A stretch of DNA of 63,757 bases, filler included. It is 6 parts of 6 records of this genome, joined end to end, with 100 filler letters (N's around TTAATTAATTAA, not from the genome) between each part and the next. Parts side by side here need not be neighbours in the genome. Positions count along the whole stretch, not along the records: positions 51,432 to 60,336 come from SRR20825010_1504; 5 more parts are not named here. One strand, 5' to 3'. The position numbers and the translations under genes are program-made. This document shows positions 48,222 to 52,809 of this stretch, in pieces. The notes below the pieces were generated by a model. The model ran no database searches. It was not told where the DNA came from and worked only from the letters and a program-made list of their open reading frames with translations. Position 1 is the stretch's first letter. Each line of letters begins with the position of its first letter.

Positions 48222-49469
48222 TTGTCTGCGCCCCAACCGACGCATAACCGCCTTGACGCCCTGCCCGACAGCCCCTTTCCGCGCCTTAATGCGCTGATCG
48301 AAGGGATCGCGCCGGGCATGTCTCCGCTCATCATGTCGCTGGGCGAACCCCAGCATGCATTTCCCGAGTTCGTGACCCAAACAATCGTCAAACACGCTTC
48401 AGAATTCGGCAAATACCCCCCCATCATCGGCACGCCCGAGTTCCGTGCCTCTGTCGCTGGCTGGTTGGGGCGACGCTACGATTTGGCCGACGCCATCGGA
48501 CCCGGCAAGCCACTTGACCCCGACCATCAGATATTGCCGGTCAATGGTACACGCGAAGCGCTCTTTAATGCGGCTCTCGTCGCCACACCGACCTCAAAGG
48601 CCGGACAGCGCCCCGCCATTCTGATGCCAAACCCATTCTACCAATGCTATGCCGCCGCCGCCCTAGCCGCAGGTGCCGAACCAGTTTACGTCCCGGCCAC
48701 CGTAGAAAATGGCTTCATGCCGGATTTTGCTGGCGTGCCAGAGGCTCTGCTCGTCCGGACATCAATGATCTATGTTTGCAGCCCTGCCAATCCGCAGGGC
48801 GCGGTCGCAAGCCTCGACTATCTCAAAACCCTCCTGCGTATTGCTCGCACCCACAACATCCTCTTGGCCATAGATGAATGCTATGCGGACATTTACGACC
48901 GTGAGAAGCCCGCTGGCGCTTTGCAAGCCGCGTTGGAACTTGACGGCACACTCAATAATCTCATCGTCTTCCACTCGCTCTCTAAACGCTCCAGTCTGCC
49001 CGGATTACGCTCCGGTTTCTGTGCGGGCGAGAGACGCTTCATGGCGCGCTTCCGCAGCTTCCGCAATATTGCCGCGCCGCAAGTACCGCTCCCGCTCATG
49101 GCGGCTTCAGCGGCCGCATGGAACGAAGACACTCATGCCGCCGAAAATCGGGACCGCTATCGTCGCAAGATCGACAGCGCCGAACGTGTCTTTGGCAACC
49201 GTCTGGGCTTCTATCGTCCTGCTGGCGGCTTTTTCCTTTGGCTCGATGTTGGCGATGGCGAAAAGGCAGCTAGAGATCTATGGGCCAAAGGCGGGGTGAA
49301 AGTCTTGCCCGGCAGCTATCTCTCGCGCGAAGATTCAGGACTGGAAAATGATTTGGGTTGCAAAGCTCTTGTCAGCGGCAATCCTGGCCACGCCTTCATC
49401 CGCGTAGCCCTTGTCGAAGATGAAACCAAGACCGAGGAAGCACTGAAGCGTATGGCGGAAATCCTGTGA
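48222..49469 (+). CDS. Class I/II PLP aminotransferase (DapC-like)
   Basis: [44 protein letters not shown]. Confidence 0.88.
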
Positions 49470-51331
49470 TCGGCAAGGCCGCAAAACGCGGACCCGCCAG
49501 AACAAAGCCAAAGCCCAAGGCAACGCGATCCAAGTCGATACGCAACACGCCGCCACCAAGGGCCCGTTGGAGGTTCCCTGTGAGGATACCCAATCCACTT
49601 GACTGGCTGCCTGCAAGCGTACGGGACTTCGTTGCGCGGCGCATCGAAGAAGCTTTCGGTGCGGGCCTGATCGCATTGGGGCTCTTTGCGCTTGTGGCAT
49701 TGATAAGCTGGCATCGCACAGACCCGAGTTGGAACAATTCAACCAGCACAAACTTCGTAGAAAACTGGGCGGGAATTCCCGGCGCCTTTGTTTCCGATAT
49801 TCTGTTCCAGACACTCGGTCTGGCAAGTCTCGTGCTCATTCTGACACCTGTGGTTTGGGGTGCCCGCCTATTCATGCACCAGCCGCCAAATTGGCTTGTG
49901 CGCCGCGTTGCAGCCTGGCTCATGGCGACACTTGTGGCAGCTGCACTGTTCGCTACATTTCCGATCGCAAAATTCTGGGCACTCGCGCCCCGAGTGGGCT
50001 TTGGCGGTGTGCTGGGCGACATATTAGCGGGTTTCGGACAAAGCTTGCTCGCCAACCTAACCGGACGCGGATTTGCCTTTGCTTTAACGGCACTCATCAC
50101 TGCTCCCTTAGCAGGGTGGCTCACTCTTTTTGCCGCCGACCTTACCCTTGGCGATATTCGTCAATCAGCCCAGCGTCTACGGGATTGGCGGCAGGGCGAT
50201 GAAGACGACGAACTTGATGCTGACGCACTCAGCTATCCACTACGCCGCCGCCGCCGCAACGCCGAAGAAGATGAAGAAAACGAAACGCCTACACCTGCAG
50301 TTCGTCGCAGGAAAAACAGATCTACACCGGAGCGCCCGCATCGCCCCGATGTGGAACCGAGCCGTTTGCGCGTCGCGCTTTGGACTGTTGGCGACAGCCT
50401 GACGGACTTACGCGACCGCGCTCTGCGTCGCGGCGATTATGCAGCACTGTCACCTGAAGAGATCGCCGCCGCCCGTTTCGGCGACGGCTTCGGCAAACGC
50501 GGTGCAACAAACGATTACGAGGAAGATTGGGACGAGGATAGCGACGATAATTATGATGATGAAGACGTCGCGGAAGACGATGACGATCTGTTGGAAGCAA
50601 TGCGCGACGCGCGACGCGAACCCCGCATTGACGGTCGCTCCGGTCCACGTATTTCACGTCCTGCTCCCAAGTCAAAAGCATCCAAACGGGCTGCTAGCGA
50701 AGCACAACCACGCCTAGCGCTGGAACCAGCAGCAGACTACCAATTGCCGCCACTCAACCTTCTGGCCAAACCCAAAGCCCCAGCCGTCGAAGCAATAGAC
50801 GACGAAAGTTTCGAACAGAACGCGCGACTGCTGGAAAGTGTGCTTGATGATTTCGGCATTCGCGGCGAGATCATCAATGTGCGACCGGGTCCCGTCGTCA
50901 CGCTTTATGAGCTCGAACCTGCAGCCGGTATCAAATCATCCCGCGTCATCGCCCTTGCTGACGACATCGCGCGCTCTATGAGTGCTGTCTCCGCTCGCGT
51001 CGCCGTGGTTCCCGGTCGCAATGTAATCGGCATTGAACTTCCCAATGCACGCCGGGAAATGGTCTATCTACGCGAACTACTGGAAACCGGAGAATATGAA
51101 AGCTCCTCCCAGAAACTGGCGCTCGCGCTTGGCAAGAATATCGGTGGCGATCCGGTAATTTCCGATCTAGCACGCATGCCCCATCTGCTGATTGCCGGCA
51201 CAACCGGCTCTGGTAAGTCGGTCGGCATCAACACAATGATCCTCTCGATCCTCTACCGACTCTCGCCCGAGCAATGCAAGCTCATCATGATCGACCCCAA
51301 AATGCTGGAACTCTCCGTCTATGACGGCATC
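49466..51331 (+). CDS. ftsK: DNA translocase FtsK, 3' truncated
   Basis: N-terminal TM domain, linker, [41 protein letters not shown]. Confidence 0.95.
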
Positions 51332-51431
51332 NNNNNNNNNNNNNNNNNNNNNNNNNNNNNNNNNNNNNNNNNNNNTTAATTAATTAANNNNNNNNNNNNN
51401 NNNNNNNNNNNNNNNNNNNNNNNNNNNNNNN
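51332..51431. other. Artificial contig spacer
   Basis: N block with TTAATTAATTAA. Confidence 0.98.
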
Positions 51432-52745
51432 GACCTCCCCCCGGCCCCCTCCCAAGGAGGGGGAGTTTAGTACCGTCTCAATTTTTGAAATTACCTCATC
51501 AATATTGTTGAGTACTTCATCATTGGTAAACCTTATTACGGTATAGCCTTTTTTCTGCTCCAACAACAATTGTCTTTCCGCATCCTCGTTCAATTGATAT
51601 TGGTGAATTTCTCCATCAACCTCCACGATCAATTCCTTTTCAAGGCAAACGAAATCAACTATATACCTAGAAATTGGATGCTGTCTCCTAAATTTCGAAT
51701 TCAAATTTCTATTTCTTAGAGCTTCCCATAGCAGAGCTTCAGCCTTTGTGGGATTCTTACGCATTTCTTGAGCCCTTTCCAATAAAACTCCGTAAATGTC
51801 AGAATCGGCCGTATGAAATTTTGGTGAAGACGAATCCGCCCCCCCTCCTTGGGAGGGGGCCGGGGGGAGGACCCTAAACGTAACTTCTGCCCCTTCGGAC
51901 CTGCCTATCCAATTGGTTTGGGAGTCCTTTAAGGGCTGTGGCCAATCTACCATAGCCAAATCGTCCAACAACCTCTGGGCATAGGCGGAGATACGCATAC
52001 TCCACTGGGTCATTTTTTTACGTATAACAGGATGGCCCCCTCGCTCGGAAACTCCATTGACAATCTCGTCGTTTGCCAAAACCGTACCCAAGGCCGGACA
52101 CCAATTCACTTCGGTCTCCGCCAAATACGTTAACCTATATTGCAATAAAACTTCCTGTTGTTCCTTTATTGTAAAGGCTTTCCAATCGGCTGCCGAAAAT
52201 AGGGTTACATCTTCATCACAAACAGCATTTACACTTTGGTTGCCCTCTTTTTCAAAAATAGCGATCAGACTGGAAATATCTTCGGCCTTATCGTTGTCCT
52301 TATTGTACCAGGAATTAAAAAGTTGGATAAATATCCACTGTGTCCATTTGTAATAATTGGGATCGGAGGTACGTACTTCCCGGCTCCAATCAAAAGAAAA
52401 GCCAATTTTATCCAACTGCTCCCTATATCTGTTGATATTGGCCTCTGTGGTAATGGCAGGATGCTGTCCTGTCTGAATGGCATATTGCTCCGCAGGAAGT
52501 CCAAAAGAATCGTACCCCATAGGGTGCAGTACATTAAATCCTTTGTGCCTCTTATAACGAGCATAAATATCGCTGGCTATATAGCCCAAGGGATGCCCTA
52601 CATGCAAACCGGCACCTGAAGGATAGGGAAACATATCCAGTACATAAAACTTTTCCTTTTGGGAATCATTTTCTGCTTTAAAAGTTTGGTTTTCAGCCCA
52701 AAATTTCTGCCACTTTTCTTCAATCTTCCTGAAATCGTAAGTCAT
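51432..52745 (-). CDS. leuS: Leucine--tRNA ligase (N-terminal part) carrying an in-frame DUF559 endonuclease insertion; 3' truncated
   Basis: [14 protein letters not shown] (HIGH), [42 protein letters not shown], then about 146 foreign residues. Confidence 0.96.
51434..51463 (+). repeat. REP-like palindromic repeat, copy 1 (CCTCCCCCCGGCCCCCTCCCAAGGAGGGGG)
   Basis: Exact reverse complement of 51841-51870; internal hairpin CCCCCTCC-CAA-GGAGGGGG. Confidence 0.92.
51841..51870 (-). repeat. REP-like palindromic repeat, copy 2 (inverted)
   Basis: CCCCCTCCTTGGGAGGGGGCCGGGGGGAGG, a 30/30 match to the reverse complement of copy 1. Confidence 0.92.
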
Positions 52746-52809
52746 CCTATATTGTTTGTCTTTAAATCCGGCGCACTAAGGGTACACACTCCATTTATTT
52801 AATGCAGGG

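Follow-up and report, generated by a model that had tools for sequence, protein, structure and literature searches.

A DUF559 nuclease cassette with triplex-motif inverted-repeat ends, in frame within a flavobacterial leucyl-tRNA synthetase gene

Homing genes go through a cycle of invasion, decay and loss. REP/REPIN repeats are accompanied by RAYT transposases, HUH/Y1 enzymes encoded in intergenic open reading frames (ORFs) of their own. Vsr-like ('EDxHD') homing endonucleases are found in group I introns, between the halves of split inteins, or as insertions that break a gene into two ORFs (Dassa et al. 2009, PMC2677866); the part of that paper available to us contains no member that is read through as a domain of its host protein. 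Rickettsia palindromic elements (RPEs) of ~150 bp encode no enzyme and form in-frame translational fusions in unrelated genes, whose function tolerates them, according to the sections of PMC10969869 at hand. The intrastrand triplex repeats of E. coli (TMECO) are reported to be always intergenic, and no mobility genes were associated with them at the sites analysed (Holder et al. 2015, PMC4666352, which cites Hoyne et al. 2000); triplex-motif repeats have been catalogued across prokaryotes (PMC4666352). Here, we describe a cassette of 146 codons that encodes a DUF559 nuclease domain and lies in frame within leuS, the gene for leucyl-tRNA synthetase (LeuRS), of a marine flavobacterium. The window, i.e. 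the whole stretch of DNA that was analysed, has 63,757 nt and consists of six contigs joined with N/TTAATTAATTAA spacers; leuS is on the contig at 51432-60336 (SRR20825010_1504, 39% GC). An earlier note on this DNA, made from its letters alone, had described the insertion and read it as a nuclease riding in an essential enzyme. The observation was confirmed and the interpretation supported. The element is probably a selfish DUF559 cassette whose ends are inverted repeats with triplex motifs, and which is tolerated in LeuRS and expressed as one of its internal domains.

On the minus strand, an ORF started with ATG at 52745 and ran without a stop up to the contig end at 51432. Its 5' part (51870..52745) encodes residues 1-292 of LeuRS, which cover the catalytic Rossmann fold as far as the first strand of the linker to CP1 (PF00133, E 2.2e-20, plus PF09334 in the Pfam scan). 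The inserted cassette follows at 51432..51869 (minus strand, from the ORF translation) as foreign residues 293-438 in the same continuous frame, and the contig stops at its last codon. The open frame of about 146 foreign codons that the earlier note had reported, and all the peptide motifs quoted there, were recovered in the translation. The cassette brings along neither a start nor a stop codon, and its length is divisible by three. Empty LeuRS alleles carry only 16 residues between NWIGxSxG and FTTRPDT (6 of the 78 rows of the LeuRS tree below, plus genome G001), the short native loop that the earlier note had described for bacterial LeuRS, and the window-type allele carries 162. The occupied allele equals the native loop plus exactly 146 residues, inserted cleanly between Val and Asn; the empty reference allele for the junction was that of Arenibacter hampyeongensis, which reads ...ACA TTT AAG GTG before and AAC GGG... 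after the insertion point. The cassette probably sits precisely in the turn of the β-hairpin through which the catalytic core of LeuRS is connected with the CP1 editing domain. A full-length AlphaFold2 (AF2) model was poor (mean predicted local distance difference test score, pLDDT, 66; predicted template modelling score, pTM, 0.50) and agrees weakly with an insertion at the hairpin tip: predicted β-strands at 283-293 and 444-449 flank the insert, with low-confidence linkers (296-309 and 428-441) around a confident core.

As the earlier note had pointed out, the contig ends before LeuRS resumes: leuS is truncated at 51432, and its remainder is not elsewhere in the window, where tblastn with the LeuRS of G001 matched 51870-52766 only. 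Whether FTTRPDT follows in frame was answered by P0004, a protein of 1143 aa on a 54.9-kb contig with the source label Arenibacter algicola metagenome-assembled genome (MAG). Its start is identical to that of the window LeuRS. It is 100% identical to the window protein over residues 270-437, and it then continues in frame into FTTRPDT and the rest of LeuRS, with the editing, catalytic and anticodon-binding domains present past the insert. G001, the nearest genome in the comparison, shares 21% of the window k-mers though its LeuRS is only 79% identical to window residues 1-292. When long proteins were searched with residues 270-437, 1076 of the 2427 candidates matched at E <= 1e-5; the best 120 of these comprised 110 LeuRS and 10 methionine synthases, all with PF04480. 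In five of five insert-bearing genomes (99-100% complete), all above-cut-off leuS_bact matches lay in one open frame of 1062-1158 aa, and the remaining leuS_bact matches were far below the cut-off, in frames of ~890 aa. Because the insert-bearing gene is the only leuS in these genomes, the fusion must be a working LeuRS, and the cassette is resident in an essential enzyme, as had been claimed. The frame was open and in register in every junction-read cassette locus (sets of 14 and 34).

It is very improbable that the fusion arose as an error of assembly, or that it is a disrupted pseudogene of leuS within a mixed assembly. The contigs pieced together in the window have GC contents of ~34%, 39% and 55-61%, and because they fall into separate classes the assembly mixes at least two organisms. 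The leuS contig also ends inside the element, and when Logan contigs of four public runs were compared over 51432-52800, three of the four broke at the repeat arms of the cassette as well. However, one 9148-nt contig of the remaining run (X7) covers 51438-52800, and since it spans the LeuRS-to-insert junction near 51870 unbroken, that junction is bridged independently, which the earlier note had asked to see. Near-identical full-length proteins (P0004-P0007) lie on contigs of 25-727 kb, both junctions are present in the Arenibacter MAG genome G042 and in locus L038, and the break itself is probably accounted for by the repeated arms. A joint 51467->51840, which skips 372 nt in single contigs of X1 and X7, was considered as an excision or empty allele and rejected: its shorter side has only 30 letters, and the arms are repeated.

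Residues 323-426 (51468..51779, minus strand) matched PF04480 with E 2.9e-35 and 120.9 bits (cut-off 20.6) over profile positions 5-108 of 109. This is a full DUF559 domain at the entry to CP1, as first described, and P0004 likewise matches above the cut-off. In a phmmer search of the Protein Data Bank (PDB) sequences, the insert matched 3HRL, a DUF559 protein (E 1e-18), and 3R3P (E 0.009). An AF2 model of the insert, built on a 35-sequence alignment, had a core pLDDT of ~90. Foldseek matched this model to 3HRL (TMt 0.82, E 4.5e-6), to 3R3P, 'Homing Endonuclease I-Bth0305I Catalytic Domain' (TMt 0.74-0.78, 30-31% identity), and weakly to E. coli Vsr (1VSR, E 0.088). The modelled domain has a Vsr-like, restriction-endonuclease-like (PD-(D/E)xK) alpha-beta fold, in agreement with the description of DUF559 in the earlier note. 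In 35 sequences from the lineages A, B and others described below, Asp87, Glu98, Asp100 and Gly101 do not vary, and conservation of His104 is at least 90%; the same D...E-x-D-G-x-x-H columns are at least 90% conserved in 94 LeuRS inserts and presumably form the active site. Between the window and L038, an Arenibacter copy identical to L008, the ratio of nonsynonymous to synonymous substitution rates (dN/dS) was 0.057 for the nuclease core (104 codons, dS 0.43) and 0.055 for the N-terminal part of LeuRS (259 codons, dS 0.48); the left linker (30 codons) gave 0.35. Purifying selection is equally strong on the nuclease core and on LeuRS.

With the Vsr-like homing endonucleases such as I-Bth0305I (PDB 3R3P), the cassette shares a Vsr-type fold, a position in conserved sites of essential or DNA-metabolism genes, and a sporadic distribution. 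Its kinship to that subfamily is suggested by the fold and by weak sequence similarity, and Pfam places the domain in DUF559. It differs from them in that its nuclease has no ORF of its own, is an internal domain of an unbroken host protein, and is bounded by inverted repeats; none of the usual housings of a homing endonuclease (an intron, an intein, or an own ORF with start and stop) was found. The likeness to a homing endonuclease that the earlier note had drawn holds for the fold; the inverted-repeat ends, shared with non-coding copies, are something that pure homing does not need. Like inteins with a homing endonuclease, the cassette is in frame at a conserved site of an essential enzyme and has the nuclease inside the insert. 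Unlike them, it lacks a Hint or splicing domain, and the mature protein apparently retains it. Intein and Hint families were absent at E <= 0.01 in the window protein (Pfam) and at E <= 1e-5 in a further scan that included P0004. The intein junction residues (Cys/Ser/Thr, His-Asn) are missing too, the insert beginning with LPPAPS and ending with GRGEV before N, which bears out the earlier view that no splicing motifs are present.

The cassette ends in two arms, which form a perfect inverted repeat of 30 nt. The gene-proximal arm (51841..51870) encodes PPAPSQGGG and reads, on the coding strand, CCTCCCCCC-GG-CCCCCTCC-CAA-GGAGGGGG, that is, a pyrimidine block mirroring the stem, followed by the pyrimidine half of the 8-bp stem, the loop and the purine half. 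The gene-distal arm (51434..51463) is its reverse complement, and the contig ends 2 nt beyond it. This hairpin pattern occurred twice in the window against 0 expected (100 shuffles). Intrastrand triplex motifs combine a Watson-Crick purine/pyrimidine hairpin (stem, at least 6-7 nt; loop, 1-6 nt) with a third block that mirrors it, as defined in the available part of PMC4666352. Both arms conform to this definition, one strand being of class II and its complement of class IV, and may form triplexes. Relatives were scanned for a hairpin plus third block in place of exact-match inverted repeats; the exact-match search found almost none because the arms differ in spacer and loop. Among 34 DUF559-bearing leuS loci, a perfect purine/pyrimidine hairpin of at least 7 bp was present at 23 left and 15 right junctions, and a third block mirroring the stem (at most one difference) accompanied 22 of the 23 left and 14 of the 15 right hairpins. 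The third block covaries with the stem (CCCCCTCC, CCCTCTCC, CCTCCCC, TCCTCCCC, CTTCCCC and others were each matched), and several of its single 'mismatches' are T where A was expected; both T-A-A and T-A-T triplets count as class II in the text seen of PMC4666352. Outside the junctions, the same loci (136,689 nt) contained 17 such hairpins, 15 of them with the third block; these are solo copies. In folding restricted to hairpins, the stability of the arms was unremarkable (z -1.05 and -1.57 relative to shuffles). The arm signal is the three-block symmetry, not the folding energy. In the AF2 insert model the arm-encoded segments had a pLDDT below 50, and the linkers that the arms encode, rich in Gly, Pro and Ser, are predicted to be disordered.

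In the mRNA, base pairing between the arms over 30 bp could leave the 377-nt core as a loop. The cassette might in this way be removed before the mature protein is made, by RNA excision, ribosome skipping or unrecognised protein splicing, leaving a normal LeuRS; a weak, below-threshold resemblance of the arms to the Rfam family whalefall-1 points in the same direction. We consider such removal quite improbable. Excision would not require an open frame, yet the frame was open in all 110 LeuRS-type proteins among the best 120 and in the junction-read loci. The nuclease is constrained at the protein level (dN/dS 0.057) and has no stop codon at its end, the arm hairpins are not unusually stable, and the domains and junction residues of inteins are lacking.

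The arms recur away from DUF559. G042 contained nine exact three-block matches, and the reversed control gave 0. Two of the nine are the arms in leuS, and six form three inverted pairs ~150 nt apart. One arm of these gene-less elements is letter for letter the 30-mer of the window. The pair on contig C18, an element of ~180 bp, contained no DUF559 and no ORF of at least 100 aa covering it, and no ORF of at least 100 aa overlapped the pair on C27. Contigs of the public runs that end at the window arms run on into the core of the 180-bp element of G042. Summed k-mer depth at the arms was 4-17x that of adjoining bins in the four runs, a sum over all contigs that gives no copy number; it is suggestive of a repeated sequence. 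The break of the leuS contig at 51432 is probably due to this recurrence of the arms as repeats.

The arms also matched whalefall-1 (RF01762) at 51432-51465 and 51839-51872, with 20 and 18.2 bits, and an arm of G042 (L123 1647-1680) did so with 26.5 bits, all below the gathering score of 37. Whale-fall metagenomes are the only known source of this orphan 'sRNA', and its consensus (hairpin UCUCUCC/GGAGAGA ... AGGGUGAGGAC) resembles a single arm of the present repeats; we take this as a lead only.

[quoted passage not shown] In contrast to these short elements without an own enzyme, it encodes DUF559, and thus, unlike RPEs, its own candidate mobilising nuclease. The arms share with TMECO the pyrimidine stem, purine stem and mirrored purine third block, loops of 2-6 nt, GC richness, multiple copies and an occasional arrangement in palindromic pairs; unlike TMECO, they are intragenic and translated, and they bracket a nuclease gene. 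A nuclease gene between inverted structured repeats that recur as gene-less inverted doublets is also the arrangement of REP/RAYT systems. Here, however, the enzyme is Vsr-like and not HUH/Y1, which sets the cassette apart from a REPtron, and it is embedded in the frame of a host protein.

The same cassette architecture is present in frame in isoleucyl-tRNA synthetase (IleRS), RecG and methionine synthase (MetH). In the near-complete genome G001, IleRS carries an in-frame DUF559 cassette between WHYPFE and FFPADYIAEGVDQTRGWF within a 1269-aa frame (L002/L007, G001:C1:549800-555700), and its arm-encoded linkers are similar (APSNSPQGGEK...KSPLLGRGLGGG). The CP1 site of G001 leuS is empty, and a solo three-block arm, translated as TPSSGGGKGE, lies just before KMSKS (L001/L006; G001:C1:848932-848961). 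In RecG (~850 aa; L018, L019, L022), the cassette is in frame between motif II (DEQHRFGV) and motif III (TATPIPRTL), with the Pfam order DEAD, DUF559, Helicase_C. Four Flavobacterium MetH proteins (P0104, P0011, P0070 and P0092, one of them source-named F. columnare) contain in-frame DUF559, P0104 in two stretches. Of 16 free-standing or N-terminally fused DUF559 loci, nine had purine/pyrimidine hairpins (stem of at least 7 bp, at most one mismatch) on both sides, two on one side and five on neither.

Several further arrangements were observed. The LeuRS of Maribacter algicola (P0026) has a similar peptide, SLPLGEGRGG, at the same place before KMSKS. In L024, L025, L034 and L036, DUF559 shares a stop-to-stop frame with a gene just downstream. 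Two of these genes encode HemD, one encodes a PLP-dependent enzyme and one the RNase P protein; DUF559 may be fused to the N-terminus of these proteins, or the genes may simply be neighbours that no stop codon separates. In E. coli K-12, the DUF559 gene ycjD (L118, 1351000-1351800) has an imperfect purine/pyrimidine hairpin across its stop codon, and within ~200 nt downstream there are a duplicated fragment of the ycjD 3' end and a full TMECO triplex motif. This links DUF559 to triplex repeats outside Bacteroidota as well.

Turnover of the insert was studied on two sets. In an even sample of 121 genomes of the family (one per genus), 50 matched the insert at E <= 1e-8, 19 of them in open frames of at least 849 aa and the rest in frames of 82-444 aa. 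By their flanks, the insert lies at this LeuRS site in nine genomes, in IleRS in two and in RecG in three; five further long frames were outside the flank-read set. The named leuS loci were the best 80 of 595 relatives of the insert-bearing query P0004. Seven were dropped (frame below 900 aa or anchor motifs missing), and P0004 and four other proteins brought the set to 78 rows. Across Flavobacteriaceae, six states of the site were distinguished. State A (14 rows) is the window type, VLPxxPSxGGG...LLLEQKKG.... State B (18 rows) reads PILSFPKGE..GYMTGGNNSH..DFIVDFVCLSKK..PPSGARGI and joins LeuRS at a different residue than A. State C (20 rows) belongs to the Polaribacter/Tenacibaculum clade and is catalytically dead, with EVDGxxH changed to EFSGKEDE. 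Further DUF559 variants made up 7 rows, short inserts of 20-50 aa 13 rows (one of them, L111, a lone B-type arm), and the empty site with the native 16 aa 6 rows.

On a LeuRS tree built without the insert (78 rows), state A required at least 10 changes for its 14 rows, B at least 15 for 18, and C three. B rows clustered no more tightly than in 101 of 500 shuffles. Sister rows differed in state with high support: L040 (A) and L042 (B) with 100, L043 (A) and L096 (B) with 99, and P0048 (A) and L111 with 100. Cellulophaga had A, B, short and empty sites, and Arenibacter had A and empty ones. The empty alleles and the patchy distribution in close relatives that the earlier note had expected were thus seen on the tree. 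An insert tree (87 rows, moderate support) grouped the copies by host site, into LeuRS-A, LeuRS-B with C nested inside on a long branch, MetH, and RecG with IleRS; free-standing copies were separate from these groups. A purine/pyrimidine GC hairpin was present in the site region of 28 of the 34 loci with A, B or other inserts, but in 0 of the 20 loci of lineage C. Since lineage C is one clade, this loss counts as about one event, and arms and active site decayed together in what is essentially one event. Repeated gain, replacement, decay and loss have taken place at this one LeuRS loop. As in homing genes, the cassette is sporadic at one conserved site, with empty alleles in close relatives and incongruence with the host phylogeny, and the pattern suggests, by analogy with inteins, a cycle of invasion, decay and loss. 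Of the 'permanent domain' of the earlier note, retention in LeuRS stood; permanence of the site did not, for it turns over between two lineages, fossils, remnants and empties.

Several points weigh against a mobile, selfish cassette. Descent is mostly vertical and replacement rare. In lineage A, the identity between inserts is correlated with that between their hosts (Pearson 0.75; 4371 pairs, 94 proteins), and in Arenibacter dS is equal for insert and host, so that the recent history is vertical and mobility rare, if there is any. The LeuRS residues flanking the site follow the host phylogeny rather than the insert type, and no co-conversion signal was seen in the LeuRS flanks of the junction-read loci, both as judged by eye. 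In approximately unbiased (AU) tests, LeuRS data rejected the grouping of L040 with the Arenibacter A copies that the insert tree shows (p-AU 4.9e-19), for a group named after the trees had been seen and with transfer of leuS itself as a further possible cause; insert data rejected the host-like grouping only marginally (p 0.050). The frequencies of the site states are biased toward carriers, because the loci were chosen as the best 80 of 595 relatives of P0004. GTC stands at both cassette ends, either as a duplication of 3 nt or because the inverted repeat extends that far. Equal selection on core and LeuRS is likewise compatible with a domain needed by the host, or with one that has to fold properly to spare the essential enzyme. 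Finally, activity of the nuclease, cleavage and transfer are inferred.

These points bear on an alternative in which an ancient DUF559 insertion has been domesticated as an accessory domain that now benefits the host (by nucleic-acid binding, regulation or a moonlighting nuclease), is inherited vertically with occasional loss, and keeps the repeats as linker relics. Besides the equal dN/dS and the correlated divergence, it would explain that the insert-bearing gene is the sole leuS copy and that the dead lineage C is kept throughout the Polaribacter/Tenacibaculum clade (20 rows, three changes); because this lineage is retained, a DUF559 domain can persist without its nuclease site. Yet one loop of sister taxa holds two DUF559 lineages with different junctions, beside empty alleles, and the perfect inverted arms equal those of gene-less repeats, an identity that the coding of a linker does not need and that the linkers of lineage C lack. 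The same architecture in IleRS, RecG and MetH, and beside free-standing copies, argues in the same direction, and we regard domestication as unlikely.

For the selfish cassette, a way of life can be proposed. It would insert precisely at the turn of the CP1-linker β-hairpin. Because it has no start or stop of its own, a length that is a multiple of three, and arms that translate into linkers, the ribosome would read through it. The product would be a working LeuRS of ~1143 aa with the nuclease on a surface loop. The cassette would gain constitutive expression from leuS, and it would be protected from disruption, because a frameshift or nonsense mutation in it would kill the essential gene. The nuclease would drive the spread along one or both of two routes. 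In the first, it may cut or nick empty leuS alleles, and homing would follow via recombinational repair after DNA exchange. For the LeuRS site, we give such homing-type copying a chance a little short of even. In the second, it may cut or nick DNA at the structured arms, followed by a REP/RAYT-like copying that would also move the gene-less doublets; this arm-directed mobilisation is put forward tentatively. The two routes are compatible with each other.

A wider and still speculative reading is that DUF559 cassettes ending in triplex motifs form a widespread and so far undescribed class of autonomous mobile elements, and that their nuclease is produced solely as a passenger within essential proteins of the host (LeuRS, IleRS, RecG, MetH and others). 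The same class may be the long-sought mobiliser of bacterial intrastrand-triplex repeats (TMECO-type, perhaps whalefall-1), with the folded arm, not the linear sequence, being recognised. No description of an in-frame DUF559 cassette was found in the literature searched, as judged partly by titles and the starts of abstracts, with supplements outside the scope. If true, the selfish reading would amount to a third way to live in an essential gene, one that needs neither protein nor RNA splicing, just tolerated linkers. It would also change the reading of large 'insertion domains' in aminoacyl-tRNA synthetases and repair enzymes, and it would provide a candidate enzyme for triplex-motif repeats that is biochemically testable now. 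The cassette is also a natural example of domain insertion with self-encoded flexible linkers. In practical terms, assemblies break at the arms, and gene naming is inconsistent: pipelines annotated these proteins as 'class I tRNA ligase family protein' or as 'DUF559 domain-containing protein'.

Some minor features were noted at the LeuRS site and around it. At the empty sites L105, L117 and L108, the native loop EFRVQSSEFR is encoded by ~4 tandem 7-nt units (GAGTTCA), which is odd for a coding loop of an essential gene. The P0002 LeuRS probably holds two tandem cassettes, because it has 342 residues at the site and a double-strength score. In L075, from a Leeuwenhoekiella MAG, the site has 218 residues, and additional solo arms are nested to either side of the nuclease. 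A Flavo-1 RNA (RF01705) was detected above threshold with 51 bits in L069 (407-526), where it lies upstream of leuS in a Flavobacterium. In the window, the leuS contig is preceded by an artificial N/TTAATTAATTAA spacer at 51332..51431, which separates two unrelated contigs and is not biology. The neighbouring contig, with 55.6% GC, contains an FtsK/SpoIIIE-like ORF (...GTTGSGKS...) at 49466-51331 on the plus strand, which is truncated by the contig end and unrelated to the cassette.

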